37,557 nucleotides of DNA from a virus (taxonomy: Duplodnaviria; Heunggongvirae; Uroviricota; Caudoviricetes). Position numbers and translations under genes: made by a program. Shown piece by piece: positions 1 through 27,673 of this stretch. The stretch lies in IMG/VR virus record IMGVR_UViG_2588253749_000008; one strand, 5' to 3'. The notes below the pieces were generated by a model. That model was not told the DNA's origin and searched no databases. It worked only from the letters and a program-made list of their open reading frames with translations. Positions within the stretch are counted from its first letter, which is position 1; each line of letters starts with the position of its first letter.

Positions 1-996
1 CTAACGAACCAGCCAGACCAGCATCAGGATAATCGCGACTAACAGTATCCACAGCGCGGGACGCGTTGCCATATTTTGCAACGTGTCCATCATCGGTGGA
101 AAAGGATTAAGCAGCGGTTGCATATCACGCGGATCAATCCCTTTAACCCGCCGTTGATAAAGCTGATTAAGAATATCCTCGGCCTGGGCAGAAGAAAGCG
201 ATGATTGCGCAGAAAGGCCATATTTTTGCTGGATATATGCCGATAACGCCGCCAGTTCACTGGCATCTAAAGGTTGTTTTAGCGCCATCTGTAGTGATTC
301 CAGCGTCGGCGTATTTTGCTGGCTTAACGTCTGGCGCGCCTGCAACCAGGTCACCAGATGGTTAAACAGTTTCGCTGGAATTAACTCGCCATCTTTCACC
401 CCGGAAAGTTCCAGCATCGATTGCCAGATCTGTTTGCTGGGTTCCCCCGTTGCCGCCGCAAGTTTGGTCACCAGCTGTTTTAGCGCATTGTGCTCCGCCG
501 GTAATAAAGGACGGTCGGTCGCCTCGCGCTGCTGTGGTTGCGGAATAACCATCTTCCCTTCCTGCAACAGGGTGAGAATGGTTTTTAATTGCTCCGGTGA
601 GAGCTGATTCAGCGGCGTCTGACCAAAGTTATGACGGATATAATCCGTGACCGCCTGACGATTATTCCCCAGACGTAAATACTCCCCTAATTGCGCTAAA
701 AGCTGGCGGGCAGAATGGCTTTTTTGCGCGGCCAGCAGACGTTGCGCCAGATTATGCTCAGCGGCAGGGAAGTGACGCGAAAGCAGCGGTGAATCTCCCG
801 ACAGACCAATATCGTGCCTGATACCCGCCCACAGTTCTGCTCTTTGTTGTTGCGTCAGTGAGGTCACTTTCGTCATTAAGCTTTCCAGCGAAGTACGTTG
901 CTGACTGGATAAAGGCTGATTGCCCGCGCCAGACGGCAGGTTATCTCCCTGACCTGGTGGTTGCCCAGGAGGAGGGCCGGAAATAGGTTGTATCAT
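1..996 (-). CDS. flk: Flk-like flagellar regulator, C-terminally membrane-anchored
   Basis: 331-aa ORF with Pro/Gln-rich N-terminus and a single C-terminal hydrophobic segment (ALWILLVAIILMLVWLV); size and architecture match what I recall of E. coli Flk. Identity from memory, not verified. Confidence 0.45.
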   Translation of the reverse strand: MIQPISGPPPGQPPGQGDNLPSGAGNQPLSSQQRTSLESLMTKVTSLTQQQRAELWAGIRHDIGLSGDSPLLSRHFPAAEHNLAQRLLAAQKSHSARQLLAQLGEYLRLGNNRQAVTDYIRHNFGQTPLNQLSPEQLKTILTLLQEGKMVIPQPQQREATDRPLLPAEHNALKQLVTKLAAATGEPSKQIWQSMLELSGVKDGELIPAKLFNHLVTWLQARQTLSQQNTPTLESLQMALKQPLDASELAALSAYIQQKYGLSAQSSLSSAQAEDILNQLYQRRVKGIDPRDMQPLLNPFPPMMDTLQNMATRPALWILLVAIILMLVWLVR

Positions 997-1055
997 TACG
1001 TATCCTTATACCTGAAATCTTCGCAAGTATGCCTGGCCGCGAGATTATGGCACAC

Positions 1056-1064
1056 TTGTCCGGT
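1056..1064. repeat. IS1 target-site duplication, left copy (TTGTCCGGT)
   Basis: Identical 9-mer directly abuts both IS1 ends. Confidence 0.85.
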
Positions 1065-1119
1065 GGTGATGCTGCCAACTTACTGATTTAGTGTATGATG
1101 GTGTTTTTGAGGTGCTCCA

Positions 1120-1395
1120 GTGGCTTCTGTTTCTATCAGCTGTCCCTCCTGTTCAGCTACTGACGGGGTGGTGCGTAACGGCAAAAGCACCGCCGGACAT
1201 CAGCGCTATCTCTGCTCTCACTGCCGTAAAACATGGCAACTGCAGTTCACTTACACCGCTTCTCAACCCGGTACGCACCAGAAAATCATTGATATGGCCA
1301 TGAATGGCGTTGGATGCCGGGCAACTGCCCGCATTATGGGCGTTGGCCTCAACACGATTTTACGTCACTTAAAAAACTCAGGCCGCAGTCGGTAA
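1120..1395 (+). CDS. insA: IS1 InsA
   Basis: 91-aa product [39 protein letters not shown]..., GTG start. Confidence 0.9.
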
Positions 1396-1817
1396 CCTCG
1401 CGCATACAGCCGGGCAGTGACGTCATCGTCTGCGCGGAAATGGACGAACAGTGGGGCTATGTCGGGGCTAAATCGCGCCAGCGCTGGCTGTTTTACGCGT
1501 ATGACAGGCTCCGGAAGACGGTTGTTGCGCACGTATTCGGTGAACGCACGATGGCGACGCTGGGGCGTCTTATGAGCCTGCTGTCACCCTTTGACGTGGT
1601 GATATGGATGACGGATGGCTGGCCGCTGTATGAATCCCGCCTGAAGGGAAAGCTGCACGTAATCAGCAAGCGATATACGCAGCGAATTGAGCGGCATAAC
1701 CTGAATCTGAGGCAGCACCTGGCACGGCTGGGACGGAAGTCGCTGTCGTTCTCAAAATCGGTGGAGCTGCATGACAAAGTCATCGGGCATTATCTGAACA
1801 TAAAACACTATCAATAA
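1314..1817 (+). CDS. insB: IS1 InsB reading frame (transposase made as InsAB' fusion by -1 frameshift)
   Basis: 167-aa ORF overlapping insA in the -1 frame, canonical IS1 arrangement. Confidence 0.9.
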
Positions 1818-1832
1818 GTTGGAGTCATTACC

Positions 1833-1841
1833 TTGTCCGGT
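1833..1841. repeat. IS1 target-site duplication, right copy (TTGTCCGGT)
   Basis: Identical to 1056-1064. Confidence 0.85.
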
Positions 1842-1970
1842 TAACTCTCGTCTCATACAGGTAACACAAACGTGAAAATCCTTGTTGATGAAAAAAATGA
1901 TGATTTAATTTATTGATATAAAAGGATTTATATCAGCACGTGTCCACGTAGTGACCACATTTTCGAGTTA

Positions 1971-2012
1971 CAGATAACACAAAGCCCGTTTTCACGGGCT
2001 TTGTGTTATCTG
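1971..2012. repeat. Perfect 19-bp-stem palindrome (CAGATAACACAAAGCCCGT tttc ACGGGCTTTGTGTTATCTG)
   Basis: Exact inverted repeat read from sequence, just downstream of the 2040-2933 gene; no clear U-tract on either strand, so terminator versus protein-binding site is undecided. Confidence 0.5.
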
Positions 2013-2039
2013 GATTGTGGCTAAGCCACATGATTTATG

Positions 2040-2933
2040 CTATTTCCAGTTACAAGCAGCTTGAAGTGGTTTTAGCGCGTTTGACAGGCCGTTTAAATTG
2101 AAAGTTGCACTTACAGGGCTCTCATTATAAGGAGTTATTTTTGTATACATTTTGTTTGAGTTGGCTAGTTTTCGGATGAAATCAATGTCATTACCTTTAT
2201 AAAAAACAGCCTTTGTATCTGTAGATACTAGCCAGTTTCGCTCAACTGCTTTCTGTTTATCAAGACGATAAAGCATGCTGGTTTGTTCAAGGCCTAAATA
2301 TACATCCCAACTAAGAAATACTTCGGTTTTCTTTTCTCGGCAAGCTATAAACAGAGTGGGAGTAACCGCTTCTCCAAATGGAGTTCTGATATAATCATCA
2401 CTTTCTAACGATAAAATTACATTTTTCGAATCATCAATTGGCGATGTAGTAATGGATGTGTGCCATTTTCCTACATCTGTGGCTTTCTCTAATTTTGATT
2501 CAGCTTGAACAGCTTTATCCTGTGGGAATAGTTTATCGTAGCAGTTTAGTCTGGCTTCTTTATCATTTTCTGCTCGGCATTTAGATATCTCAGAAAGATT
2601 TGGTTGCTGAGCCTCTGTTGTTACTGGCTTTTCCGTTTTAGATTTTGAGTTTACAGATGGAGTAAATGTTGGAGAAAAAAAACGATCATAACAAGATAAA
2701 CGTCTGTCATCATCTTTCTCATCAGGGCATTGATCTCTGCTTTCGAATTTTTCAGCAACTTTCGTTCGAGTCGGTTGTATTGACTTATCGTAACAAGAAA
2801 GTCTGTCTTTATTATTTTCTATTGCTCGGCACTGGAGTACTGCATTGAAGTTATTATGTTCAGTTGCTGCGTGAACAGGCAGTACACTAATTGATATAAA
2901 TGATGCACCTATAGAAAAAATTATATTTTTCAT
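2040..2933 (-). CDS. Secreted/periplasmic protein with three Cys-x8-9-RL(S/N)CYD(K/R) repeats and a ~150-aa C-terminal domain of unknown function
   Basis: 297-aa ORF; N-terminal signal-peptide-like segment MKNIIFSIGASFISISVLPVHA; three spaced two-Cys repeats; visibly GC-poor. Confidence 0.6.
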   Translation of the reverse strand: MKNIIFSIGASFISISVLPVHAATEHNNFNAVLQCRAIENNKDRLSCYDKSIQPTRTKVAEKFESRDQCPDEKDDDRRLSCYDRFFSPTFTPSVNSKSKTEKPVTTEAQQPNLSEISKCRAENDKEARLNCYDKLFPQDKAVQAESKLEKATDVGKWHTSITTSPIDDSKNVILSLESDDYIRTPFGEAVTPTLFIACREKKTEVFLSWDVYLGLEQTSMLYRLDKQKAVERNWLVSTDTKAVFYKGNDIDFIRKLANSNKMYTKITPYNESPVSATFNLNGLSNALKPLQAACNWK

Positions 2934-2937
2934 TTTG

Positions 2938-3270
2938 TTATCCTTTTGGTTTAGTAAGAAATACTAAAATTCCGATAATGATATCGCCAATAACCCATAA
3001 ACTTCCAATGGTAATTAAACCTAAGCCTGTACCAATAACTGCACCGGCTTTTTCGGCATCGGATGTAGCATTATTTATTATTTCACTAGTGCCTCCCAGT
3101 CCAACTAAAAGCGTATAGATCATAAAAATATTAAATAATATAAATATCCACTTAATGAGCTTTCCAAAAAATGAACGCTTAAGTTTTTTTATTTGTTTAC
3201 CGCAAGCAGGGCAATACAATGCTGAATCGCTCACCTCTTTCTGGCATTCAGGACATTTGATTAATGCCAT
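2938..3270 (-). CDS. Zinc-ribbon membrane protein (N-terminal CPxC...CPxC, two predicted TM helices)
   Basis: 110-aa ORF MALIKCPECQK...CPACGKQ followed by two hydrophobic stretches; GGAGG RBS; stop lies 5 nt before the start of 2040-2933 (operon). Confidence 0.6.
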   Translation of the reverse strand: MALIKCPECQKEVSDSALYCPACGKQIKKLKRSFFGKLIKWIFILFNIFMIYTLLVGLGGTSEIINNATSDAEKAGAVIGTGLGLITIGSLWVIGDIIIGILVFLTKPKG

Positions 3271-3531: not shown

Positions 3532-3672
3532 TTACTGCTTACACTGTAAGAACGCCGCAAACTCCGCTCCCCAGAAACTCATCCGTATTTCGCACAGCGA
3601 ACCGTGCAACATCCAGATGATGAGGATTACCGTCACGCAGAACGTGATGGCTGTAAGCGATTTTTGCGACAT
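3532..3672 (-). CDS. Hok/Gef-family type I toxin (small membrane peptide)
   Basis: 46-aa ORF not in the supplied track: MSQKSLTAITFCVTVILIIWMLHGSLCEIRMSFWGAEFAAFLQCKQ; shares the SLCEIR and E-x-AAF motifs of Hok/HokA-type toxins; stable 3' stem-loop GACGGGGGAttacTCCCCCGTC at 3501-3522. Confidence 0.65.
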   Translation of the reverse strand: MSQKSLTAITFCVTVILIIWMLHGSLCEIRMSFWGAEFAAFLQCKQ

Positions 3673-3862
3673 AGCACTTGCTCCTTTTCCGGAGAGGCGC
3701 TAACCTTTCACTTGCTTAGGGTAGACGGTTAGGGCCTCGGTTAAACAAAAGTGTTTTCCGGGGCCTTTCCACATCTGGCCTTCGGGTATTCCCTCCGACC
3801 ATCAGCCGAAAGGCACCCGCGCGTAATCTATCGCTTTTTTGTTACTCCGGCAATTCTGCTTG

Positions 3863-4123
3863 TTAATTCTGAGGTAAAGGCAAACTCATCTGATTGTTTC
3901 CCCTGTGTGAAGCTGGTAGCTCATGCCACGGGATACCTTCTGAAGAGTGAACGCCGGAGGCGTGTTTCGATGTGAATTTATGGAAAGCTTCCAGTGTTGA
4001 GAAGCATACGCCGCATTCCAGATTGTTACACTGGTAATACTTTTGCCGCACGGTGTTTGAATCATTTTCCGGACGACTTGTGCGGATACGGGCAGATGCG
4101 CCACAAAGCGGACAACGGAACAT
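3863..4123 (-). CDS. ogr: Ogr/Delta-type zinc-finger late-gene activator
   Basis: MFRCPLCGASARIRTSR...YYQCNNLECGVCF matches the Ogr CPLC...QC..C zinc finger; ORF is 86 aa versus about 72 aa for P2 Ogr. Confidence 0.8.
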   Translation of the reverse strand: MFRCPLCGASARIRTSRPENDSNTVRQKYYQCNNLECGVCFSTLEAFHKFTSKHASGVHSSEGIPWHELPASHRGNNQMSLPLPQN

Positions 4124-4314
4124 AGCGACCTCCCTTAACGTGGTGTTGCCGCTATTCTAGATTGTACGATCCCTAATTCCAACTAACAGCTCGCTCTGTG
4201 CGAAGAGTGAAAATTGAACTTTCAATAGTTGTTGAACTTCCATACATCCAATGTGAAAATTCATACGTTCATAATAGTTAAAATTTAAAATATTGTATAT
4301 CAGGTGAATAAAGC

Positions 4315-5337
4315 ATGGGAAGAGATATAACGCTGTACCCTAAAAAAGCAACTAGAAACGAACTTAAAAATTACCTTGAAAATTTAGGTTTTAAAAGGTG
4401 TAAACATTTGTGGGAATGGCCCCAAGGAACGTTGAATTACTCTTGGTTTGATGATACGGACTTCAAATCTACAGATGGAGTTTCGGCTGATATATATCCT
4501 GTTTCAAATGACGAATTACACATATCTGGTAATAAATGGGCATTGCATGTGCGTAATTTATATAGCGCTAGTTGGCATGATGTAAAAATGCTTAATGATG
4601 TTCTAAAAGGCGCAAGGAGTCTTTTTGGTGGAACACTTATAGGTGATTATGGGAAAAATAGGTACGCTCCTCTATGGAAGGATTCTAGTAGTCCGATCAG
4701 TCGTGGCATTTCTTCAATATTTAATCATGTCCATCATGAGATTTCCGCTGTTAAACATGCCTTACCTGAACCTTCTATTAAATTAAACCTACCGGAAGAT
4801 GGCGGCTTATCCGAATACTTTGATTACATGCAATGTATGGATCCCAGTAGAGTTATATATAATGGATTAGTACCTTTTGCGGTTGCTATGTTTGAATACT
4901 TTTTCTCTAGAGCTTTTCAAATACTTATAAAGTACGATCCTTTCGCAATAGCAAAAAGAACATCGTATAAGCAAAAAGTTGATTTTGATATTCTGCTTGA
5001 GATAGAGAAAGGAAATATTTCAATAGAAAGTGTTATTGCAAGAAATTACACTTTTCAAAACTTAACCCACCTAAACAAAGCATATAAAGAGTGGCTGGAT
5101 ATAGATGTGAGAGCGATTCTTTATAAGAAAAAAAGAATTGGAAAATCAGTTGATTTTCTTGAGAATCGAATTTCTGAAATCATACAATATAGACATGGGA
5201 TAGTTCATCACTTTGAGTTGGATAGGACCTTAAATCGGGATGGATATATTCATATATTAGATGCGATAGAAAAAAGCATAATTGAATTTATCCATTACAT
5301 AGAAGGCAAATACAAATTTAAATTAAATGCGTATTAA
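4315..5337 (+). CDS. Orphan GC-poor cargo gene, 340 aa; C-terminal alpha-helical region with an R-x4-H (YRHGIVHH) HEPN-like motif; candidate defence/abortive-infection protein
   Basis: Intact ORF opposite in orientation to flanking ogr and D; AGGTGA RBS; visibly AT-rich against the prophage backbone; followed by a hairpin at 5366-5389. HEPN assignment is motif-level inference only. Confidence 0.55.
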   Translation: MGRDITLYPKKATRNELKNYLENLGFKRCKHLWEWPQGTLNYSWFDDTDFKSTDGVSADIYPVSNDELHISGNKWALHVRNLYSASWHDVKMLNDVLKGARSLFGGTLIGDYGKNRYAPLWKDSSSPISRGISSIFNHVHHEISAVKHALPEPSIKLNLPEDGGLSEYFDYMQCMDPSRVIYNGLVPFAVAMFEYFFSRAFQILIKYDPFAIAKRTSYKQKVDFDILLEIEKGNISIESVIARNYTFQNLTHLNKAYKEWLDIDVRAILYKKKRIGKSVDFLENRISEIIQYRHGIVHHFELDRTLNRDGYIHILDAIEKSIIEFIHYIEGKYKFKLNAY

Positions 5338-5365
5338 GCAATCAACCTTACATAGGGATGACAAA

Positions 5366-5402
5366 GTCCGCTTCTGACACGGAGCGGACCGTCGTTTATG
5401 TT
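5366..5402 (+). terminator. Putative terminator of the cargo gene (GTCCGCT...AGCGGAC hairpin)
   Basis: Inverted repeat then a weak T-rich tract (CGTCGTTTATGTTT). Confidence 0.4.
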
Positions 5403-5457
5403 TAATTCTATACTGTAAACTTGCCAGTTTAAGTTTGAGCTAATATGTCTAAGTTGC

Positions 5458-6568
5458 TCACTCTGTTTCTGCTATCCATTCCGGGATTTTTGCCTCAAGC
5501 TCAAGCTGTGTGGTAAAGCCGCTGTTATCAATGGTGTGCTCGGCTTTCGCAATAATCCAGTCCTGATTATCAATCTCGCTTTTAAATCCTGTTACCGTGC
5601 CATGCATTTCGGGGTAGAGTTTCTGCACGTCCACGCACCAGCGTGATGGAAAACGATGCGGCTCCGCGTTGTAGCTGCTGCCACTTTGCCGCCGCTGCGC
5701 GTCTTGCTGCCTGCTCGTTCTGATAAGTCTTGCGTAACACAAACACATTGCCTTCCGCGCCTTCCATATAATCACCTTCACGGCTGCTGCTTTTCTCCTT
5801 TTTGGGTTTTGGCGGTTTGCGGCGTTTCACGCTGACTTTTTTCTTTTTCCCGTAATTAAGATCAAGCCAGTAAGCGCGTACCCCCGTATACGCCTCGCGG
5901 TCAGCAATGCGGAACTGATGGCGATCGCCGCTGCTGCGTGTGATGGCGAACGATGGCAACGGCTGGCCCTGTGCGTTTACGCCACCGCCGGGCATGATGA
6001 ATAACAGATTACCGCTTTTTACCGTGGTGATTGCGCCCAGCATTTCCGCCATGCGCGTAAGGAAGGACATGTCGCTTTCTTCAGTCTGGTCGGCGTGGTC
6101 GATTTCGATATCCATCAGCATTTCGCTGATTTGCGGTTTCAGGCCGTACCGATGAGCGATGGCGGATACCACACGTTCAACGGTCACATCATGCCAGGAC
6201 GCCTCACGTTTAACATTAAATTCATCCCGAAAATCTGCGCTTCTGGCTGAAACAGTCAGCCTGTCCGGCGGTCCTTCGTGAGCGATTTCATCAACAATGT
6301 AAGTGCCTTTTTCTGTCAGCGGTTCCCCTTTCCAGCCAATGAGAACCGTCAGACGCGCGCCCCGTGGCGGTAGCTGCAACTGGCCATCGGCATCATCCAG
6401 CGTGATGGTGAGCTGGTCCGCCTCAAATCCCCGGTTGTCGGTCAGTGACAGGCTCATCAGGCGTTCTGCCACGCCGGACAGCGTTTTACCCTCGGCGAGA
6501 ATATCAAAATCCGGCATTTTCACGGGGTCTGTGCCCTGACTGAGCAATTGCATGGTGGTGTCGGTCAT
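5458..6568 (-). pseudogene. D: P2 gpD-like tail protein, interrupted by an apparent +1-nt frameshift near 5625-5640
   Basis: N-terminal 329 codons in one frame (ORF 5582-6700, start reassigned to ATG at 6568 with GGGAGGGAG RBS); conserved C-terminal 45 residues (HGTVTGFKSEID...GFTTQLELEAK) in the overlapping ORF 5458-5781; junction at GCAGAAACTCTACCCCGAAATG. Confidence 0.7.
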
Positions 6569-6621
6569 CTGCTCCCTCCCTGTGTGGCATGGTCGCATGT
6601 GCGTGCGGAGGGGGTTACTGC

Positions 6622-6656
6622 TTTTTGTTGTCGCCGTGGCGGGAGAATGGCGCAGG
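6622..6656 (+). promoter_or_regulatory. Candidate Ogr-dependent late promoter upstream of FI
   Basis: CTTTTTGTTGT-N12-AGAA...CAGGGG, the same motif pattern as upstream of P at 24258-24292; resembles the P2 late-promoter TGT-N12-ACA element (from memory). Confidence 0.3.
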
Positions 6657-6725
6657 GGTGAGATTACGCGCGTGGTGGGTGATGATTGTTGCCGAATCAT
6701 TTAACGGATACAAGGGGCTGAAGCT

Positions 6726-7910
6726 ATGAGTGAAACTCGTTTTCATGGTGCCCGTGTTACGGAAAATACCGACCTGGTAACAGCGATTAACGATGTTGAT
6801 TCCAGCGTTATCGGTATCGTGGCAACGGCGGATGATGCGGACGCGAAGCTGTTCCCGCTGAACAAGCCCACACTGCTGACCCGCGTCAATGACGTGCTGG
6901 GAAAATGCGGGACAACGGGGACGCTTTATCGTGCGCTTAAGGCCATCGCAGACCAGGTGAGCACAAAGGTGATCGTCGTTCGCGTGGCTGAACACAAAGA
7001 AGAAGACGGAAAGACGCAGGATCAACTGGTTATCGGTGGTTCTGAGGATGACGGCAGCTATACGGGGATGTATGCGCTGCTTGTTGCAGAGCAGGATGAA
7101 AGCATCGGATACCGTCCGCGTATTCTGGCCGCGCCGGAGCTGGACACGGAGGCTGTAACAAAATCCCTGTGCGTGATTGCAGGTAAACTGCGCGCGTTTG
7201 TGTATGCCTCATGTCACGGCTGTAACACGATGGCTGAGGCGATTACCTACCGCCAGAAATTCAACGAACGTGAGGTGATGCTCTTATGGCCGGACTTCAT
7301 CGCCTACAACCCGAAAAGTGGCAAAAACGAAACGTTCCCCGCGCCTGCCTATGCGTGCGGCCTTCGTGCGTACATTGACCATGAGCAGGGATGGCACAAA
7401 TCACTGTCCAACGTTCCGGTTAAAAATGTGCTGGGGATGTCGAGGCATGTGTTCTGGTCGTTACAGGCCGAAGACAGTGATGCCAACAGCCTCAACAACA
7501 AAGAAATCACGACCATTATTCGTCGCAACGGGTTCCGCTTCTGGGGCAACCGCACACCGGAAACGAACGCCTACATCTTTGAGGTGTATACCCGAACCGC
7601 ACAGGTGCTGGCTGATTCAATTGCGGAAGCGCAGTTTGAAACCATCGACAGTCCACTGACGCCTGCGAACGTGAAGGATGTTATCAGTGCCATCAGGGCA
7701 AAACTGGATTCACTGGTTACTGCCGGGAAACTGATTGGCGCGGAGTGCTGGTATGACGTGGTGGATAACAGCACCACGGATTTACGTCAGGGGCGTGTGC
7801 GTATTCGCTACAAATATACGCCCGTTCCGCCACTGGAAGACATGGAGCTTTACCAGACGTTTACTGATGAATACTTTGAACCCGCATTTGCGGTTCTGGG
7901 AGGTGCCTGA
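6726..7910 (+). CDS. FI: Tail sheath protein (gpFI)
   Basis: 394 aa; long blocks match P2 FI as recalled (LNKP, RAF.Y...GC.T, WPDF, DQEQGWHK.LSNV, IRR.GFRFWGNRT, YTRTAQV, YTPVPPLE). Confidence 0.9.
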   Translation: MSETRFHGARVTENTDLVTAINDVDSSVIGIVATADDADAKLFPLNKPTLLTRVNDVLGKCGTTGTLYRALKAIADQVSTKVIVVRVAEHKEEDGKTQDQLVIGGSEDDGSYTGMYALLVAEQDESIGYRPRILAAPELDTEAVTKSLCVIAGKLRAFVYASCHGCNTMAEAITYRQKFNEREVMLLWPDFIAYNPKSGKNETFPAPAYACGLRAYIDHEQGWHKSLSNVPVKNVLGMSRHVFWSLQAEDSDANSLNNKEITTIIRRNGFRFWGNRTPETNAYIFEVYTRTAQVLADSIAEAQFETIDSPLTPANVKDVISAIRAKLDSLVTAGKLIGAECWYDVVDNSTTDLRQGRVRIRYKYTPVPPLEDMELYQTFTDEYFEPAFAVLGGA

Positions 7911-8422
7911 TGGCTGTGCCAAAACATCTTCGCTTTTTTACGCTGTTTGTGGATGGTGAAAACGAAGTGGGTAAGGTGACGTCCGTCACTCTGCCCAAAC
8001 TGACGCGCAAAACCGACAGCTACCGGGGTGGTGGCATGATGGGGGCGGTAAGTATTGATCTCGGTCTGGACGACTCTGCGCTTGATGCGAGCTTTGTCAT
8101 GGGGGGCGCAGTTCGTGCGCTGTTCCTTAAGTATGGCGGCACGATTGACGGCACGCTGCTGCGTTTTGCGGGTGAATACTACACCGATGCAGAAAGCGAC
8201 CTGTATGAAGTCGAAATGCGCGGACGTGTGACGGAAATTGATATGGGGGAAGCCAAACAGGGCGAAGCCACATCACACACTTACGCCATTAAAAACACCT
8301 ACTACAAGCTGAGTGTTAACGATCGCCCGTTGTGGGAGATTGACCTGCTGAACTTCATTTACCGGAAGGACGGCAAGGACATTGTGTCCGATCGCATCCG
8401 TTCCGCGCTTGGGCTTGGCTGA
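7910..8422 (+). CDS. FII: Tail tube protein (gpFII)
   Basis: 170 aa, immediately after FI; size and position match P2 FII. Confidence 0.85.
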   Translation: MAVPKHLRFFTLFVDGENEVGKVTSVTLPKLTRKTDSYRGGGMMGAVSIDLGLDDSALDASFVMGGAVRALFLKYGGTIDGTLLRFAGEYYTDAESDLYEVEMRGRVTEIDMGEAKQGEATSHTYAIKNTYYKLSVNDRPLWEIDLLNFIYRKDGKDIVSDRIRSALGLG

Positions 8423-8476
8423 TAAGTAATATGCAGGCGGCGCAGTGCGTCGCCTCTGACTGAAAGGAGTTTCCTG

Positions 8477-8842
8477 ATGAAAGAGACGAAAAACATCGAT
8501 ACCGAAAACACGGTAGTTACTGACACTGTGAAAGAAACCAGTGAGCGTGGCGTAAAACTTACCCAACCAATTGAGCGAGGCGGCGAAAAAATCACGTATG
8601 TGGAGATCACCGGGGCTATTGAGCAGGCTGGATCTCTGCGAGATTTGTCGCTGTCTGATGTGCTGAATCTGAAAGCGGAATCCATGTTTACGCTGCTGTC
8701 ACGCGTGACATCACCGCGACTGGATGAAGTGACGATCAAAAAAATGGCATCCCGTGACTTTATTCAGTTATGTGTGGTTGCCGTAAATTTTTTGAGCGGT
8801 GCGGACTCTGGCGGGAAGAACGAACAGGCGACGGAAGCCTGA
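8477..8842 (+). CDS. E: Tail assembly chaperone gpE (zero-frame product)
   Basis: Position between FII and T; contains the T-TTT-TTG slippery heptamer at 8788-8794. Confidence 0.75.
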   Translation: MKETKNIDTENTVVTDTVKETSERGVKLTQPIERGGEKITYVEITGAIEQAGSLRDLSLSDVLNLKAESMFTLLSRVTSPRLDEVTIKKMASRDFIQLCVVAVNFLSGADSGGKNEQATEA

Positions 8843-9006
8843 TCACGGTTGTGTGCTTTGAGCACATAGAAGACTTTGTGGCAGATATTGCCGTTATTTT
8901 TAACTGGTCGCCCGCCGAAATCTTCATGATGACGCCCGGCGAAGTGGTTAGCTGGCGTGAGCGGGCGGCACTTCGCAGCGGGAATGCAGACAATGAAGAC
9001 TCTTGA
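8477..9006 (+). CDS. gpE+E' fusion made by programmed -1 frameshift at TTTTTTG (8788-8794)
   Basis: The -1 frame after the heptamer continues ERCGLWREERTGDG...FNWSPAEIFMMTPGEVVSWRERAALRSG to a stop at 9006; analogous to P2 E/E' and lambda G/GT. Confidence 0.7.
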
Positions 9007-11800
9007 TATCCGGGTCGCTTTCAGCGCCGTTGACAGGCTGACCCGGCCTGCCGAAAACGCCCGCCGCCTGATGGGGCAGTTTGGTGACTCCATCCAGCGA
9101 ACGCAGGGGGCGATCAAAAATCTCGAGCGTCAGGCGCGATCATTTGAGCGCGCCCGCGACGCTGTCAGTAAAGCGGATGCTGGCATATTGAAAGCACGAC
9201 GCCAGCTTAACGCCCTTAATCAGTTACAACGCACGGGTACAGTGCTCAGCGAAAAACAACAAAAGCTGATGCAGCAGTTAAGCACCCGGCTTGAACACCT
9301 GAATGAATCGCGCACACGTGAAATTCAGAAAATGCGGGAGCTTGGCGGAGAGCTGAAACGCCACGGCATTTCCCTGACAGGCAGCGATAACACCATCCAG
9401 CAGGCCATCAGACGCACCGAACAGTACAACAACCAGCTTGAACGCGAACGGCAGGCGCTTGCGCGTGTAACGCGGGCGCGTGAGCGGTATTCGCGCGCGC
9501 AGGAAACTGCGGGAAAACTGAAAACAGGTGGTGCGCTGGCAATTGGTGCGGCAGCGGCTGGCGGCTATGCTGCCGGGCGTTTTTTGCAGCCTGCGATCGG
9601 GTTCGGGAAAGAGATGTCCCGCGTTCAGGCACTGACGCGAATCGACAAAAACAGCCCGCAGTTTAAGGCGCTGCGTGAGCAGGCGTTAAAACTTGGCTCT
9701 GAAACACAGTTTACTGCGAGTGATGCCGCCAGTGGGCAGAGCTTTCTGGCAATGGCTGGTTTTACTCCGCAGGCCATTCAGGCCGCATTGCCCGGTGTTC
9801 TTAATATGGCGCTGGCAGGTGGCGTCGAACTCGGCGAGACGGCTGATATAGGCTCCAATATCCTCACACAATTCAACCTGACAGCCGATCAAATGGACCG
9901 TGTTGGCGATACGCTGACAGCAGCATTCACCCGGACCAATACTGATTTACGCGCGCTGGGCGAAACCATGAAGTATACCGGTCCGGTTGCCGCAAAACTT
10001 GGTATCAGTCTTGAAGAAGCGGCAGCCATGGCCGGGATGCTTGCCAATAATGGTCTTCGTGGAAGCGATGCTGGTACAGCCATGCGCGCAAGTCTGTCCC
10101 GCCTTGCATCACCGCCAAAAGCTGCGGCTGATGCGCTGAAAGAGCTGGGGGTGTCAGTTGCTGACGCCAGAGGCAAAATGCGCCCGATGGAGGATGTGCT
10201 GCTTGATCTCTATAAGGCGACACAAAAATACGGACAGGTGGACCAGGTCTCCTTCTTCAAGGACATCGCCGGAGAAGAGGCGTTCGTTGGTTTGCAGACG
10301 CTTGTTGCGGCGGCTGGTTCAGGAGAGCTGCAAAAACTGACCAGAGAATTGCAGGGGGCAAGGGGAGAGGCCGATCGCGTTGCAAAAGTAATGGCCGATA
10401 ATCTTGATGGGGACCTGAAAAATCTCGACAGCGCATGGGAAGGTCTTCGTATTCGCATCAGTGATCTGGTTGACGGTCCGCTGCGTTCTGTCACGCAGTG
10501 GCTCACGCGGGTGCTTGAAAAAATCACCTCGCTGGCGCAGGCCCATCCGGTACTGACGCGCCAGCTACTGATAGCAGGCGGTGCGTTGCTGGCAATGACT
10601 GCAACGGTTGGCTCGTTGTCGCTGGCTATTGGTGTGCTTGCTGGCCCGCTGGCAAAACTGCGTCTTGGCTTTTCCCTCCTGACCGGTTCAATGAATGCTG
10701 TCAGACTCCTGCCAGCACTATGGGGAATGGTGACGGGTTCCGTTTCGTTACTGGGGGGCGCTATCGGGGCGTTGTTCAGTCCGGTCGGTCTTATCGTGGC
10801 TGCGCTTGCCGGAGCTGCCGTTCTCATCTGGAAATACTGGGATCCCATCAGGGCATTTTTTGCCGGGGTGTTCAGCGGGATTATGGAAAGGCTGACCCCG
10901 TTGCGCGAAACCTTTGAACGGTTTGGTCCTGTTTTTGACGCAATCGGAAGCGGGATCAGCCAGGTGTTTAACTGGTTTAAATCGCTGTTGTCACCGATGG
11001 AGTCCAGCAAGGAAACGCTGGATAAATGTACCAGTGCTGGCGAGATATTCGGTAACGTTCTTGGCGGTGCGTTACAACTTGTTCTGACACCTGCAAAAAT
11101 GCTACTGGATACGCTGGCGTGGATACTTGAAAAACTTGGCGTCCTTCCGGATGAAGCGGAAAGGGCGCGCAAGAAAATCGAAGACGCACAGCGTGAGGCC
11201 ATTCTTCAGGACAAGGTTGCCTTGCTTCAGGGGGACCTGGCGAAAATCAATCCGCCGAAGCCTGTGGAAAATGGCAATGGCACCGGAGGTGATAACCCCA
11301 AAGACAATAAACCGCTCACAGACAGCAATACCGGTACGCTGCGCAGACTCAGCAAAATTGCTGATAACACAGGTAAGCTGGTTGAGGAGACGAAAAAACG
11401 CATTGGCCCCGGCGATATTGTCTTTAAGAACCTGCCCCGAGCACTTGCTGTTCGTGGGGAGTGGCAGGAGCGGAAGATTGCGCAGGTCAGTAAGCCTGCC
11501 CCCGCAATTAATATCACACCCGTGGTCTCGGCTCCGCTGCCTCCGGCGCTGGTCCCTGTTGTTGCGGCCAGCTCCCGCCCGGTGGCGGAGGCTATACGAT
11601 CTCCAGTGGCATCAGTTCCTGTAACTTCCCGTAACCGGGAGCCTGTTGCCTCCGGATTTGGTGGTGAAATTCATGTTCATCTGCATAACGTTGTTACGCA
11701 GAATCCCCGCGAACTGGCGAAACTGGTCGGTGAAATGGTCAGGGCAGAAATGGAACGGCGCGCCCGTGCCGGGCGTGGCAGTTTTTACGATAAAGATTGA
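8984..11800 (+). CDS. T: Tail tape-measure protein (gpT)
   Basis: About 940 aa, coiled-coil-rich N-terminus, Gly/Ala-rich hydrophobic middle, located between E' and U; start set at ATG 8984 (MQTMKTLDI). Confidence 0.85.
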   Translation: MQTMKTLDIRVAFSAVDRLTRPAENARRLMGQFGDSIQRTQGAIKNLERQARSFERARDAVSKADAGILKARRQLNALNQLQRTGTVLSEKQQKLMQQLSTRLEHLNESRTREIQKMRELGGELKRHGISLTGSDNTIQQAIRRTEQYNNQLERERQALARVTRARERYSRAQETAGKLKTGGALAIGAAAAGGYAAGRFLQPAIGFGKEMSRVQALTRIDKNSPQFKALREQALKLGSETQFTASDAASGQSFLAMAGFTPQAIQAALPGVLNMALAGGVELGETADIGSNILTQFNLTADQMDRVGDTLTAAFTRTNTDLRALGETMKYTGPVAAKLGISLEEAAAMAGMLANNGLRGSDAGTAMRASLSRLASPPKAAADALKELGVSVADARGKMRPMEDVLLDLYKATQKYGQVDQVSFFKDIAGEEAFVGLQTLVAAAGSGELQKLTRELQGARGEADRVAKVMADNLDGDLKNLDSAWEGLRIRISDLVDGPLRSVTQWLTRVLEKITSLAQAHPVLTRQLLIAGGALLAMTATVGSLSLAIGVLAGPLAKLRLGFSLLTGSMNAVRLLPALWGMVTGSVSLLGGAIGALFSPVGLIVAALAGAAVLIWKYWDPIRAFFAGVFSGIMERLTPLRETFERFGPVFDAIGSGISQVFNWFKSLLSPMESSKETLDKCTSAGEIFGNVLGGALQLVLTPAKMLLDTLAWILEKLGVLPDEAERARKKIEDAQREAILQDKVALLQGDLAKINPPKPVENGNGTGGDNPKDNKPLTDSNTGTLRRLSKIADNTGKLVEETKKRIGPGDIVFKNLPRALAVRGEWQERKIAQVSKPAPAINITPVVSAPLPPALVPVVAASSRPVAEAIRSPVASVPVTSRNREPVASGFGGEIHVHLHNVVTQNPRELAKLVGEMVRAEMERRARAGRGSFYDKD

Positions 11801-11806
11801 GGAGTC

Positions 11807-12301
11807 ATGGCCATGATGATGATCTACGGCATGTTTGTTTTTGAGCTGCGCACGCTGCCGCATCAGCAGTTACAGCAAAACAAAAGCTGGCGGCATGTGA
11901 AAAATGAACGCGTTAACCGTTCAGCAAGCTGGCAGTATATCGGTGCAGGTGATGATCGCATCGTTCTTTCTGGTGTGCTTTATCCTGAAATTACAGGTGG
12001 CGAAGTGTCGCTGTCGCTGCTGACCACGCAGGCGTATACAGGACGACCCTGGCCTTTGATTGATGGCGTCGGGCAGATTTACGGCATGTATGTCCTGACC
12101 GGAACGAATACGACCCGTTCCGAGTTTGATCGCTACGGTAAGGCGAAAAAGATAGAATTTTCACTGACCCTTGAACGCTGTGATGAGGATTTGCGGGAGC
12201 GCCTGCAATCCTCATCGTTCAGCGATATGCTGTCCGGCTTCAAAGATAAAGTGACATCATCTCTTAACAGCGCGGTCAGTTCAGTTAAAGGGCTGTTCTG
12301 A
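11807..12301 (+). CDS. U: Tail protein gpU
   Basis: 164 aa immediately after T; size and position match P2 U. Confidence 0.8.
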   Translation: MAMMMIYGMFVFELRTLPHQQLQQNKSWRHVKNERVNRSASWQYIGAGDDRIVLSGVLYPEITGGEVSLSLLTTQAYTGRPWPLIDGVGQIYGMYVLTGTNTTRSEFDRYGKAKKIEFSLTLERCDEDLRERLQSSSFSDMLSGFKDKVTSSLNSAVSSVKGLF

Positions 12302-12312
12302 TTTAACACAAA

Positions 12313-12346
12313 AACCGCTAATGACCAGATTAGCGGTTATTTTGTT
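12313..12346. terminator. Bidirectional rho-independent terminator between U and the invertase gene
   Basis: AACCGCTAAT gaccag ATTAGCGGTT flanked by T-runs on both strands; overlaps the invertase stop codon. Confidence 0.55.
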
Positions 12347-12930
12347 TCCTGACTCTTCTCAATTGTTCCGCTTGATTCTCCTGCGGGGTGGTAACGATAA
12401 ATCGTCGATATACCAATGCCGTAAATTATTGCCAGTTGTTTTCTGTCGTGCCCGTTTTTGATCAGCCTTGCTATTTGCTCATGCTGTTCTTTTGTCAGCT
12501 TCGGGCGACGTCCGCCTGTGCGCCCTCGTGCGCGCGCTGCAGCCAGTCCGGCCAGTGTACGTTCAACAATTAATTCACGTTCCATTTCAGCCAGGGCACC
12601 CATCACGTGGAAGAAAAAACGCCCCATTGGAGAAGATGTATCTATGCTGTCGGTCAGACTGCGAAAATTAATCCCTCGCTCCCGTAGTTCCCCGACGAGA
12701 GAAATCAGATGTTTCATGCTTCGCCCGAGGCGATCCAGTTTCCAGACAACCAGCGTGTCGCCTTTTTGAAGGCGCTTTAAAGCGCGTTTTAATCCCGGTC
12801 GGTCTGTCTTTGTCCCGCTTAATTTATCTTCAAATATTTGTTCGCATCCTGCACAAACAAGAGCGTTTCGTTGCAGGTCTGTATTCTGGTCATTTGTTGA
12901 TACGCGAACATAGCCAATAAGCATGATCAT
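12337..12930 (-). CDS. Serine recombinase, DNA invertase (Hin/Gin/Cin/Pin family)
   Basis: 197 aa; N-terminal GYVRVSTNDQ catalytic-serine motif, C-terminal HTH; sits beside the invertible tail-fibre segment. Confidence 0.9.
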   Translation of the reverse strand: MIMLIGYVRVSTNDQNTDLQRNALVCAGCEQIFEDKLSGTKTDRPGLKRALKRLQKGDTLVVWKLDRLGRSMKHLISLVGELRERGINFRSLTDSIDTSSPMGRFFFHVMGALAEMERELIVERTLAGLAAARARGRTGGRRPKLTKEQHEQIARLIKNGHDRKQLAIIYGIGISTIYRYHPAGESSGTIEKSQETK

Positions 12931-12979
12931 CCCCCTGAATAAAAACCGGGGATGATGCCAGTTAGCTGTTACCTCTGCA

Positions 12980-13005
12980 TTTTCTTAAACGTTGGTTTGG
13001 GAGAA
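12980..13005. other. gix/hix-like crossover site A (TTTTCTTAAACG TT GGTTTGGGAGAA)
   Basis: 26-bp imperfect palindrome matching the 12+2+12 invertase-site pattern TTnTCnnAAACC as recalled; inverted relative to site B. Confidence 0.6.
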
Positions 13006-13449
13006 GGTGCTCCAGCTATTGGCGTTCCGTTCTTCTGGCCCTCCGCGGCAATGCCAAATACTGTAATCGACAGCTGGTCCGGTATGGTGTTTTTGAAGTT
13101 CAACGGGGCGAAATTTTCTGCCTCTGATTACCCTGTGCTGGCGAAAGTGTTTCCTTCGCTGGTATTACCTGAAGCCCGCGGTGATTTCATTCGTATCTGG
13201 GATGACGGGCGAGGTGCAGACGGTGGTCGCGAATTATTAAGCTGGCAGGCAGCTACAAACTTTTCTCAGTTTGCCGGGAATATAGGCGAAGGTGCGGGAC
13301 ACGCAATTAACTTTCATGATGGCATCGCCGGAAATCAGCCAGGATTTTCACGATTTAATTTCACCAGTAACTCTGTGGGTGATGGTGTGAATTTTGTTGC
13401 TGTCAGACCGCGAAATATTGCATTTAACTTTCTGGTGAGGGCTAAATAA
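12994..13449 (+). CDS. Silent alternative tail-fibre C-terminal cassette (Sv'-like)
   Basis: Begins at the crossover with LGEGAPAIG, mirroring LGLGEAAK at the crossover inside H; would fuse in frame to the H constant region after inversion. Confidence 0.6.
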   Translation, partial: GLGEGAPAIGVPFFWPSAAMPNTVIDSWSGMVFLKFNGAKFSASDYPVLAKVFPSLVLPEARGDFIRIWDDGRGADGGRELLSWQAATNFSQFAGNIGEGAGHAINFHDGIAGNQPGFSRFNFTSNSVGDGVNFVAVRPRNIAFNFLVRAK

Positions 13450-14042
13450 TGAAACCTGTTTTTGATGAAAATGGGCTGGCTACAGTGCCGGGCGATATGC
13501 GTTGTTTTTATTATGATGCTGAAACATCTGAGTATACGGGCTGGTCTGATGAATATATTAATACTGGCGTAAGTATGCCCGCCTGTTCCACTGGTATTGA
13601 CCCTGGCGAAAACATTCCGGGAAGAGTGGCAGTATTTACAGGTAAGGGATGGAGCCATGAAGAAGACCATCGCAATGAGACTGTTTACTCAATCGAAAAT
13701 GGTGCTGCTGTTACAGTGGATTATATCGGTGCCATCAAAAACGGTTATGTCACGCTTTCACCGTTAACGCCATATGATAAATGGGATGGTGAGAAATGGG
13801 TGACAGATACTAAGGCACAACACGGTGCCGCAGTAGAAGCGGCAGAAGCACAGCGCCAGTCACTGATTGATGCTGCAATGGCTTCCATCAGCCTGATTCA
13901 GCTGAAATTACAGGCCGGGCGGAAGCTGACGCAGGCAGAAACCACCCGGCTTAACGCCGTGCTTGATTACATTGACGCGGTGACGGCAACAGATACGAGC
14001 ACCGCGCCGGATGTCATCTGGCCTGAACTGCCGGAGGCGTAG
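13449..14042 (+). CDS. Tail-fibre assembly protein, alternative copy (Tfa')
   Basis: 197 aa; C-terminal motif DTSTAPDVIWPELPEA parallels the other Tfa copy. Confidence 0.75.
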   Translation: MKPVFDENGLATVPGDMRCFYYDAETSEYTGWSDEYINTGVSMPACSTGIDPGENIPGRVAVFTGKGWSHEEDHRNETVYSIENGAAVTVDYIGAIKNGYVTLSPLTPYDKWDGEKWVTDTKAQHGAAVEAAEAQRQSLIDAAMASISLIQLKLQAGRKLTQAETTRLNAVLDYIDAVTATDTSTAPDVIWPELPEA

Positions 14043-14454
14043 GCCATTCAATATCTGGCGCACCGGAAGTATCGACCAGTTCCAGTGCGTCCAGATAATC
14101 CAGCCACAAATTATATTGCACCAGTTCCTCACCTTTCAGGCGACCAATCGCCGCTTTACCAGGCCATTGCTTACTGTTTATGTATTCGTTGACCTGATTA
14201 ATCAATTGCTGCTTTTCCAGTTCGGCTGCGGCAATTTGTTCCTCATGAGTTGGCGGTGGAATATCAATCCATGCAGGCATTCCGTCGATGACACCTCTGT
14301 ATTTTCCTTCTGGTGCTTCCTTCATAAATTCGGCGGCAACAGTGTCGTCAATTTCGATTCCATCACCGGGCCATTCGCCGGATTCCTGATAAGCGATTTT
14401 AAGCTCCACAGGGAAAAACGCATTTTTATCGGCACTGAAAATATATTTCTGCAT
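14014..14454 (-). CDS. Tail-fibre assembly protein (gpG/Tfa, currently expressed orientation)
   Basis: 146 aa directly downstream of H; C-terminal DTSGAPDIEWPTPP. Confidence 0.8.
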   Translation of the reverse strand: MQKYIFSADKNAFFPVELKIAYQESGEWPGDGIEIDDTVAAEFMKEAPEGKYRGVIDGMPAWIDIPPPTHEEQIAAAELEKQQLINQVNEYINSKQWPGKAAIGRLKGEELVQYNLWLDYLDALELVDTSGAPDIEWPTPPAVQAR

Positions 14455-14456
14455 TT

Positions 14457-15863
14457 CTACCGTCCTATCGAAATATAACTGAATCTGTATTGCTGTGAGA
14501 TATCACTGGTTGCCACACGCCACGCTGAATTACTGATATGTTCAAAATTTACAGACAAAACCTGCGGGGCAGGATTCGACGGGTCTGACTGAACGGCATC
14601 AGACATAACACTGACTGAAATCATCGGCTGATTAGGGAATGGTATAGGGAAGTGTCCACTGATAAAGCGGGTCGTGTTTCCTGAAAAAGTGCCAAACTGA
14701 ACAATATATCCACCTGGTAGCCTGAACCATCCCGAACCAGAAGCGAATGCTCCCATATCCGGTATCTGATTATCTCCTGTGCCCACATCCCTTTTCGCCG
14801 CTTCTCCTAAACCAAGGTATGCGAGAAGACCAGCAACATCCTTTCCACTCAAATTAGTCAGCGTATTGTCCAGCGGTTGTTTGTCTGCCAGTGCATTAAG
14901 CACTGTTGTTGAAAAGTTAGGGTCATTCCCCAGCGCCGCCGCCAGTTCATTCAGTGTATCCAGTGCCGCAGGGGCAGAACCCACCATTGCCGCAATTGCT
15001 GATTTCACAAAAGCTGTGGTGGCAATCTGTGTATTGTTGACCGACTGTGCCGCAGTAGGTGCTGTTGGCGTTCCGGTAAGTGCCGGACTCGATAGCGGCG
15101 CTTTCAGTGCCAGCGCATTGTTAATGGTGGTGCTGAATTTCGGGTCATTGTTAATGGCTGCGGCAATTTCTTTCAGTGTGTCCAGCGTGGCTGGCGCACC
15201 GTTAATCAGATCGGTAATAGCGGCCTGAACAAACTCAGTGGTCGCAATCCGCGTGGTGTTATTTCCTGCGGCAGGCGTCGGCGCTTTTGGTTCTCCGGTA
15301 AATGTCGGATTATGTTTCTGCGCATACTGGGTATGAGGATCCTGTGCGGCAATGTGGTTTCTCATCTGGTCATCCACATACAGCTTTAATTCCAGGACTT
15401 TATCATCCACGTATTTACGGGTCGCCAGTACCACCGACGGGTCGATTTTCAGCGTGATGGCTTCGGTGTTCGTGACAACCAGAATCATGCGGATAGTCTG
15501 GGTGCGTCCACTGCCTTCCTGCAACTGCGGTTTGTACGTTTCCGGGCAGTTTGCCACCGCAATGAGTACACCTTCATCATCATAAAGACCAATCTCACGG
15601 ATCCAGAATCCTCCCTCGTTTTCAGGGATGATTTGCTCAGCAATAATCTGGCTCTGATTGTTAGGGTCAACACTCAGAAGATTCAGCGGTGCAATGCGTT
15701 TCTGGTTAATCAGTTTTGTTTGTGCAGGGTCTGGTGTTGGTAACACACCATTTGCATCACCAACGGCCATTTGCGTCAGATTCAGCTTACTGCCGAGCAT
15801 CGTCGCGTTAGCCAGTCGTGCCGCGCCCTGATTAGTCAGAATGGCGTAGTATTTCACTGTCAT
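14457..15863 (-). CDS. H: Tail fibre protein (gpH): constant N-terminal part plus invertible C-terminal part
   Basis: 468 aa; conserved tail-fibre N-terminus MTVKYYAILTNQGAARLANA; crossover site B lies inside the gene. Confidence 0.9.
   Translation of the reverse strand: MTVKYYAILTNQGAARLANATMLGSKLNLTQMAVGDANGVLPTPDPAQTKLINQKRIAPLNLLSVDPNNQSQIIAEQIIPENEGGFWIREIGLYDDEGVLIAVANCPETYKPQLQEGSGRTQTIRMILVVTNTEAITLKIDPSVVLATRKYVDDKVLELKLYVDDQMRNHIAAQDPHTQYAQKHNPTFTGEPKAPTPAAGNNTTRIATTEFVQAAITDLINGAPATLDTLKEIAAAINNDPKFSTTINNALALKAPLSSPALTGTPTAPTAAQSVNNTQIATTAFVKSAIAAMVGSAPAALDTLNELAAALGNDPNFSTTVLNALADKQPLDNTLTNLSGKDVAGLLAYLGLGEAAKRDVGTGDNQIPDMGAFASGSGWFRLPGGYIVQFGTFSGNTTRFISGHFPIPFPNQPMISVSVMSDAVQSDPSNPAPQVLSVNFEHISNSAWRVATSDISQQYRFSYISIGR
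14802..14827. other. gix/hix-like crossover site B (TTCTCCTAAACC AA GGTATGCGAGAA)
   Basis: Inverted partner of site A, inside H. Confidence 0.6.
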
Positions 15864-27144: not shown

Positions 27145-27171
27145 CGCGCTTCGCTTGTCTGCTGCTTCGCC

Positions 27172-27197
27172 GGGGCATAAAAAATTTATGCCCCGAC
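27172..27197 (+). terminator. Terminator after Q (GGGGCATAAAAAATTTATGCCCC)
   Basis: Perfect hairpin read directly from sequence. Confidence 0.5.
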
Positions 27198-27590: not shown

Positions 27591-27621
27591 GTGCAAACAA
27601 AAAAAGCGCCTTATCGGCGCT
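27591..27621 (-). terminator. Terminator for the 27674-27901 gene (minus strand)
   Basis: AAGCGCCGATAAGGCGCTT followed by TTTTTTTG on the minus strand. Confidence 0.45.
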
Positions 27622-27673
27622 TCAAAAGTATCAATTGTTGCTGTGTATTAATCGCCAACCACGAACATATGCT

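Follow-up and report, generated by a model that had tools for sequence, protein, structure and literature searches.

The stretch of DNA under study, referred to below as the window, comprises 37,557 nucleotides of virus record IMGVR_UViG_2588253749_000008. It is a piece of the E. coli chromosome that contains flk (positions 1-996, minus strand), a copy of IS1, two AT-rich genes and then a P2-like prophage, which is classed as Peduoviridae, genus Gemsvirus; the record “Escherichia phage 500465-2” and prophages of many complete genomes are nearly identical to it. The left end of the prophage has the order hok/sok, ogr (minus strand), an open reading frame (ORF) of 340 amino acids (plus strand) and D (minus strand), followed by FI, FII, E, T and U (plus strand). 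The 340-amino-acid ORF, which appears in RefSeq as hypothetical protein WP_000532200.1, is the subject of this work. We find that it is a mobile cargo gene whose product carries a predicted HEPN domain in its C-terminal half, and we regard it as a candidate defence gene.

A preliminary description of the window, made from the sequence alone, had pointed to this gene as an AT-rich insertion with its own signals between ogr and D, which would directly adjoin each other in canonical P2 order. Indeed, in relatives of the prophage with an empty site (e.g., that of UTI89), ogr and D are 42 bp apart, and the plus-strand gene does lie between the two minus-strand genes. The span first given for the insertion, 4130-5460, was essentially right, and the true boundaries are listed in Table 1 together with the other features of the locus. 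The G+C content of the gene is 0.336, compared with 0.534 for the prophage part of the window and 0.519 for the window as a whole; nowhere does the rest of the prophage backbone fall below ca. 0.41. The gene is thus much more AT-rich than the backbone, as had been described, and it is preceded by a putative ribosome-binding sequence of its own. Since the region conserved in homologues of other taxa starts precisely at the ATG that follows this sequence, the start codon can be considered fixed.

Table 1. Features of the ogr-D junction and of the inserted gene (positions are those of the window)
Feature	Position	Strand	Basis
ogr, late-gene activator, left core flank of the hotspot	3863..4123	-	ORF list and annotation
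Promoter-like site facing ogr: TTGGAA, 17 nt, TAGAAT; 9/12 match (putative function)	4154..4182	-	consensus scan
Left copy of the junction direct repeat, TCTAGATTG	4156..4164		cassette/empty-site alignment
Inserted cassette at the ogr-D junction, 1293 bp, G+C content 0.34	4160..5452		alignment with the empty site of UTI89 and six other cargo types
Shine-Dalgarno-like AGGTGA, 7 nt 5′ of ATG	4302..4307	+	read from the sequence
340-amino-acid ORF including stop codon; two-domain protein, HEPN C-terminal half	4315..5337	+	ORF list, homologues
N-terminal alpha+beta domain, residues ~1-130, family-specific	4315..4704	+	AlphaFold2 model, conservation
HEPN domain, Pfam PF18735 HEPN_RiboL-PSP, residues ~178-333	4846..5313	+	Pfam, conservation, fold
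R293-H-G-I-V-H298, R-x4-H catalytic signature	5191..5208	+	invariant in relatives
Hairpin rich in G+C, 9 pairs (6 G-C), located between D and the convergent ORF	5366..5389		conserved in most cargo types
Right copy of the junction direct repeat, TCTAAGTTG	5448..5456		cassette/empty-site alignment
D, tail/late control gene, right core flank; frameshifted in the window	5458..6700	-	ORF list and comparison with relatives

A search of Pfam gave for the 340-amino-acid protein a match to a single family, PF18735 (HEPN_RiboL-PSP), below the gathering score (see below), with residues 181-329 aligned to profile positions 29-189 of 191. The initial statement that the protein belongs to no named family therefore has to be corrected for its C-terminal half. 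The same profile is matched at E <= 0.01 by all 43 aligned homologues tested (best E-value 1.5e-8), and a precomputed PF18735 match, graded “weak” in neighbourhood annotations, is attached to most homologues present in databases. The preliminary description had also recognized a HEPN-like R-x4-H signature within the sequence YRHGIVHH. The signature is there (codons 5191-5193 for R293 and 5206-5208 for H298), and both residues are invariant in the alignment of homologues as well as in 76 of 76 distant full-length representatives. The pattern as such is within the reach of chance: 89% of shuffled versions of the 340-amino-acid protein contain at least one R-x4-6-H, and we rejected it as stand-alone evidence. 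Its weight comes from the invariance in relatives and from its place within the HEPN profile. In the C-terminal half of the 76 representatives, which reach down to ca. 22% identity, E194, F247, R293 and H298 are conserved in 100% and Q248 in 95%, while H294, which occupies the polar position after R that is typical of HEPN motifs, is conserved in 92%.

The AlphaFold2 model of the protein (mean predicted local distance difference test score (pLDDT) of 80; predicted template modelling score of 0.67) consists of an alpha+beta domain formed by residues 1-110, a long helix with a variable linker, and a helical bundle formed by residues 178-333. As can be seen in the model, the bundle is predicted to be all-alpha, and the R-x4-H signature lies in the loop between its last two long core helices, in agreement with a HEPN-like fold. 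The founding members of PF18735 are either fused to an endoRNase L-PSP or encoded in an operon with ParB. In this respect the 340-amino-acid protein differs from them despite the sub-threshold profile match and the R-x4-H motif that it shares with the Ribo L-PSP-HEPN family: neither Pfam nor fold comparison revealed an L-PSP fusion, and ParB is not among the 25 most frequent neighbour families. These contexts are characteristic of the founders and do not define the domain.

HEPN domains without activity exist (PMC3710099), and the loop that carries the motif is modelled with low confidence, so that one might think of a catalytically dead or purely ligand-binding HEPN domain and of the whole protein as a regulator or adaptor. 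We consider this very improbable, since R293, H298 and E194 are invariant throughout the family and H294 is found at the polar position after R. Furthermore, Anantharaman et al. (2013), who describe Ribo L-PSP-HEPN as a distant relative of AbiD/AbiF with an R-x4-6-H motif, score it as having the active motif (PMC3710099).

The N-terminal half is a different matter. Searching 1.84 billion cluster representatives exhaustively with HMMER retrieved just 284 related clusters, nearly all of them 330-350 amino acids long and spanning both halves of the protein, and did not find the N-terminal domain outside the family. In the 76 distant representatives, G55, D89, N94, G105, G106 and G113 of this half are conserved at 95-99%. 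The domain is modelled as a block with pLDDT values of 72-95 over residues 1-110, which drop below 50 at residues 113-120. Fold comparison gave weak matches only, to ZipA, BamC-N and the N-domain of spermine synthase; we rejected these identities, along with CYTH-like fragments and CdiI, because the likeness is weak and generic. An endoRNase L-PSP identity was rejected as well, there being no match by sequence or by fold. Foldseek retrieved nothing at E <= 0.001 from the Protein Data Bank (PDB) or from BFVD, a sequence-profile search of the PDB gave only spurious matches (E > 0.2), NCBIfam gave no match for the protein, and PHROGs gave insignificant ones (E-values of 0.09 and 0.74). Homology to a protein of known non-defence function, which would have spoken against the preliminary description, was not detected in any of these searches, HEPN_RiboL-PSP being the only family found.

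Comparison with the orthologues from Hafnia and Mixta (88% and 85% identical) yields a ratio of nonsynonymous to synonymous substitution rates (dN/dS) of ca. 0.10; in more distant pairs the synonymous sites are saturated while the proteins are still 53-73% identical. The 340-amino-acid ORF is a working gene under purifying selection. In 10 of 10 cross-taxon comparisons the N-terminal domain (residues 1-130) is no less conserved than the HEPN domain (residues 178-335, window positions 4846-5319), and in eight of the ten it is more so (e.g., 0.81 and 0.74, respectively, for Shewanella, and 0.68 and 0.56 for a spirochaete). Across phyla, the N-terminal domain is 56-89% identical. Such strong conservation suggests that the domain responds to a cue that is itself conserved, be it a component of the host or a phage protein of conserved structure.

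We searched complete E. coli genomes for the cassette and for its insertion site. The cassette with the HEPN gene is present in 65 of 5426 genomes (1.2%), and ogr and/or D of this lineage in 1463. A probe for the empty junction matches 1200 genomes, contiguously in at least 720 of them, which means that the junction is empty there. In other prophages a different gene, likewise single and oriented either way, occupies the site with identical boundaries. There are seven types of cargo in all: a SEC-C-motif protein (92 genomes), the HEPN gene (65), a PIN_4 protein (59), a DUF2971 protein that matches the PADLOC candidate PDC-S31 with an E-value of 5.4e-27 (16), a bSEFIR homologue with a PADLOC E-value of 1.4e-44 (5), a DUF3800 protein and a 465-amino-acid hypothetical protein. 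The PIN_4, DUF3800 and SEC-C types are uncharacterised. We conclude that the HEPN gene is variable, horizontally mobile cargo and not a syntenic core gene of P2-like phages, just as the preliminary description had proposed. The junction has the properties of a prophage defence hotspot, namely, variable occupancy of one core-gene junction and alternative cargo that includes a recognized defence gene, bSEFIR, and a candidate system, PDC-S31.

The seven types share a common cassette frame. At the 5′ side there is a conserved end with the sequence TCCAAC, at the 3′ side a conserved end finishing like TGAGCTAATACATCTAA, and in most types a hairpin (GTCCGC...GCGGAC), diverged in the DUF3800 cassette, is located 5′ of the latter. 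The frame also includes a 9-bp direct repeat (TCTAGATTG / TCTAAGTTG), of which the empty site has a single copy, TCTAAGTTG. The shared frame suggests a dedicated swap site rather than random insertion. The downstream hairpin that the preliminary description had attributed to the HEPN gene is real, but, being within the frame of cargo types in either orientation, it is not specifically the terminator of this gene. On the minus strand, TCCAAC of all seven cassette types reads TTGGAA, a putative -35 element facing ogr; in the promoter-like site listed in Table 1 this -35 element is inside the conserved cassette end and the -10 element is in the flank. The ends of the cassettes would be conserved in part for expression of ogr and termination of D.

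The position next to the late regulator ogr, and the fact that the cassette end appears to provide the -35 element of ogr, may be taken to mean that the gene serves the phage's own cycle or competition, as an RNase for host shut-off, for processing of phage transcripts or for action against P4-type satellites during P2 lytic growth. Phages do encode RNases. We find such a role improbable: the gene is absent from most close relatives of the prophage, its direction of transcription opposes that of the late operon, and most of its homologues are located outside phages, in chromosomal islets and islands of many phyla.

Homologues that are 51-88% identical to the 340-amino-acid protein are present in Hafnia, Mixta, Pantoea, Proteus, Shewanella, Aeromonas, Pseudomonas, Halomonas, Marinobacter and Achromobacter, and also in Bacteroidota, Desulfobacterota, Gemmatimonadota, Spirochaetia, Cyanobacteria, Terriglobales and Patescibacteria. 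By a pattern scan, at least 32 of 185,579 species have a homologue. In every locus checked, the gene is AT-rich relative to its surroundings. The recent acquisition that the preliminary description had read from the composition is loosely supported at best, since the gene shows this kind of bias in every host examined. One may also envisage a horizontally spread cellular enzyme of RNA metabolism or stress, in which the N-terminal domain would bind a universal ligand (ribosome, tRNA or nucleotide) and the HEPN domain would act in a stress unrelated to phages. The dN/dS of ca. 0.1, an N-terminal domain that is never less conserved than the HEPN half, and the occurrence of some copies among housekeeping genes are what one would expect of such an enzyme. 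Its distribution should, however, be less patchy than the one observed both among species and within E. coli, and neither the foreign composition in every host nor the association with prophages, integrases and defence genes fits it; we judge this explanation to be of low probability.

The surroundings of the homologues are diverse. One is located in the early region of a lambdoid prophage, beside a SIR2 gene; another in an integrase/AlpA/DUF927 island, beside a gene for a UvrD-type helicase; yet another in the tail-fibre hotspot of a different phage; and others are found with an integrase and IS91 or with toxin-antitoxin genes. A PADLOC search with 141 neighbour proteins detected ThsA, HamB, subunits of type I restriction-modification systems, DrmD, a CBASS cyclase, a retron reverse transcriptase and several candidate systems, and Pfam adds phage integrases and transposases to this list. 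The gene thus keeps company with defence genes. No neighbour family recurs, as judged by all-against-all BLAST of the neighbours in 29 loci from many phyla, nor does one recur in six further loci, and the idea of a conserved partner gene was rejected on these grounds. An adjacent or fused MNT nucleotidyltransferase antitoxin of the kind known from HEPN-MNT (HepT/MntA) systems was not found either. Flanking non-coding DNA does not align across taxa, and Rfam detects nothing inside the cassette, which led us to reject an upstream or downstream antitoxin RNA in the style of AbiF. Taken together, the lack of a recurrent neighbour, the unconserved flanks and the Rfam result show that the mobile unit is the ORF alone. 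In Aeromonas and in one metagenomic contig, the gene adjoining the homologue (locus L004, 9064-9957, and locus L009, 7236-7937) encodes a different R-x4-H protein (VRNEIAH and CREIRNAISH, respectively), and these sites may be ones at which genes of the HEPN type cluster.

A toxin restrained in cis could persist without any real protection from phages. According to this explanation, the HEPN domain would be a selfish toxin or addiction module held in check by the N-terminal domain and maintained through a penalty on loss of the element or through hitch-hiking on mobile DNA. It is unlikely in our opinion, as neither a separate antitoxin gene nor a conserved RNA was found, and a single stable polypeptide offers no obvious mechanism of post-segregational killing. 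Moreover, the neighbours are more often defence systems than toxin-antitoxin pairs, and the slot between ogr and D also holds bSEFIR, a defence gene for which PADLOC has a model. It should be noted that toxin-antitoxin and defence readings are not mutually exclusive.

We consider it fairly probable, by analogy with known systems, that the 340-amino-acid protein is an autoinhibited single-protein HEPN RNase with a role in defence by abortive infection. An RNase that is autoinhibited and triggered by infection is suggested by the stand-alone character of the gene, which lacks an antitoxin, by the invariant HEPN motif, by the presence of a second conserved domain and by the location at a site of prophage defence genes. 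In the lysogen, the protein would be made from a weak promoter of its own and kept inactive. Upon infection by another phage, the N-terminal domain would receive a signal linked to the infection and pass it to the C-terminal HEPN domains, which, probably paired in a dimer, would then form the R293/H298 active site. This site would cut cellular RNA (tRNA anticodon loops or mRNA), translation would stop, and the infection would be aborted. The defence interpretation put forward in the preliminary description is supported by the computational data presented above, and a defence function is what we infer from them.

Several observations weigh against this explanation. The protein itself scores 22.5 bits (E-value of 1.2e-4) against PF18735, below the gathering score of 28.4; on the strength of this sub-threshold score we place its C-terminal half in a divergent PF18735 subfamily that has an N-terminal domain of its own. 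The model is weakest right at the R-x4-H loop, where pLDDT falls below 50 (residues 292-299). This loop and the loop of residues 113-120 are the least confident parts of the model and both are rich in invariant residues; one may speculate that they would become ordered only in an oligomer or upon activation. A consensus scan of the plus strand upstream of the gene found no σ70 match of 9/12 or better. The DNA there is AT-rich, as the preliminary description had it, and contains weaker matches only, so that the term promoter-like, used in that description, applies loosely. Several homologues reside in plain housekeeping neighbourhoods. A sensor domain that is more conserved than its effector is unusual if what it senses are fast-evolving phage proteins. 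Such conservation could indicate a cellular ligand of the N-terminal domain, and it is also what sustains a cellular role outside defence as a rival explanation. Finally, no family of PADLOC-DB v2.0.0 (5027 models) matches the protein at E <= 10, and this leaves guilt by association as the sole link to defence. PADLOC v2 contains models for AbiD/AbiF (Abi_2), PD-T4-5, ApeA and other catalogued HEPN defence proteins.

Among characterized systems, HepS, the “HEPN solo” abortive-infection protein of the Gifsy-1 prophage (Sargen et al., Nature 2026), could provide the best model for how the 340-amino-acid protein works. HepS forms an inactive tetramer until tail-tip proteins of siphoviruses activate it to cleave tRNAs in the anticodon loop (PMC13043305). 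Both are encoded by a single prophage-borne gene that has no partner and is located in a prophage accessory-gene position, the HEPN domain of each contains a canonical R-x4-6-H motif, and both are presumably inactive until triggered. However, homology in sequence or structure and a single domain of less than 250 amino acids, the features of the HepS family, are not found in the 340-amino-acid protein. PD-T4-5, a single-gene relative of AbiD/AbiF that acts by abortive infection (Vassallo et al. 2022, PMC9519451), and AbiD/AbiF (Abi_2) proteins in general are likewise encoded by single genes on mobile elements, with the HEPN domain at the C terminus. Unlike them, our protein has no Abi_2 match in Pfam and no match in PADLOC at the above threshold, and its N-terminal domain is unrelated to theirs. 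Clostridioides difficile AbiF is reported to be under RNA regulation (PMC12373285), whereas no conserved flanking RNA was found at the HEPN gene. Thus, the 340-amino-acid protein is analogous to, and not homologous with, HepS or PD-T4-5, and it belongs to neither family by the tests that were run.

A literature search with RiboL-PSP, PF18735 and WP_000532200 retrieved no functional study and no paper on the family or on a PF18735-only protein of this architecture. A review (PMC10952713) cites PF18735 merely as a generic HEPN accession for PD-T4-2, PD-T4-5, PD-T7-3 and ApeA. Neither ogr nor gpD is mentioned in Rousset 2022 (PMC9122126) or Moura de Sousa 2026 (PMC13586616), and ogr is not mentioned in the iLund4u preprint; a single-gene cassette frame with conserved ends, a hairpin and direct repeats is not described in the text consulted. 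It is known in principle that prophages carry solo HEPN effectors; for the family, for its N-terminal domain and for the cassette frame we found no earlier description. We put forward, tentatively and with considerable reserve, a more far-reaching proposal. The 340-amino-acid protein might represent a new family of single-protein HEPN immune effectors, in which an N-terminal domain that exceeds the nuclease in conservation across at least 10 phyla senses an equally conserved host component or phage protein, and the ogr-D junction might be a distinct, uncatalogued slot for single-gene defence cassettes, with a frame (ogr promoter element, hairpin and 9-bp repeats) that permits swaps of cargo.

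Other features of the window were noted as well. At ca. 5620-5622, gene D has one extra T compared with phage 500465-2, B7A, UTI89 and another relative, which splits D into ORFs 6700-5582 and 5781-5458. Either the extra T is an error of sequencing, or D, a tail gene, is defective in this particular prophage. In most of the prophages inspected, RefSeq/PGAP annotates D as an 801-nt coding sequence of the “VgrG/Pvc8 family” plus a 93-nt pseudogene fragment on the opposite strand, leaving the N-terminal third of D without annotation even where the phage record has an open frame of 1242 nt. On the other side of ogr, a toxin ORF of the hok/gef type (3532-3672) is contained in a minus-strand region (3532-3818) in which Rfam matches sok at 3659-3818 with an E-value of 3.9e-10 and 51.9 bits, under the gathering score of 59. 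The prophage of UTI89 ends with hok, which lies beside serS; the type I toxin-antitoxin module therefore marks the end of the prophage.

The prophage is integrated at flk in three of three inspected carriers of the HEPN gene, and the UTI89 relative with the empty site is integrated at serS. The AT-rich block of two genes (2040-3270, minus strand, G+C content of ca. 0.35) is outside the prophage and encodes a 297-amino-acid protein annotated as TagO-like, with a repeated R-L-S/N-C-Y-D-K/R motif, and a 110-amino-acid zinc-ribbon protein with predicted membrane helices. All carriers inspected have this block at the flk site; beside the relative integrated at serS it is missing. IS1 (ca. 1050-1820; InsA/InsB frames 1120-1395 and 1314-1817), which lies between flk and the block, is also present at flk in B7A and is absent in the ST131, chicken and 94-3024 carriers. 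Within the prophage, the classical gpA-gpQ hotspot (27145-29617) contains a 319-amino-acid ParM/StbA-like gene and a 148-amino-acid gene and no defence system, in agreement with the remark of Rousset et al. that in about one quarter of P2-like phages this hotspot is occupied by a putative partition system (PMC9122126). The FI-FII-E-T-U tail block (6726-14500) is on the strand opposite to D and ogr, unlike in canonical P2. Next come a DNA invertase gene (12337-12930, minus strand) and tail-fibre-assembly genes that point in both directions, an arrangement suggestive of an invertible segment for host range.

HEPN RNases are already established as abortive-infection effectors carried by prophages, so that the advance is incremental and not conceptual; the HEPN gene at the ogr-D junction is a well-founded and testable candidate and no surprise. 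If it acts as we propose, it would add to the known repertoire a widespread family of single-gene HEPN defence proteins missed by current defence-finding profiles, a family that is rare and yet occurs in Proteobacteria, Bacteroidota, Cyanobacteria, Spirochaetia, Gemmatimonadota, Patescibacteria and others. A new infection cue could then come to light through the domain on the sensor side of these proteins, which is unusually conserved. The ogr-D junction, found in about one quarter of complete E. coli genomes, would be a productive place to look for further single-gene systems, and the PIN, DUF3800, SEC-C and 465-amino-acid cargo genes are equally candidate systems at this site.

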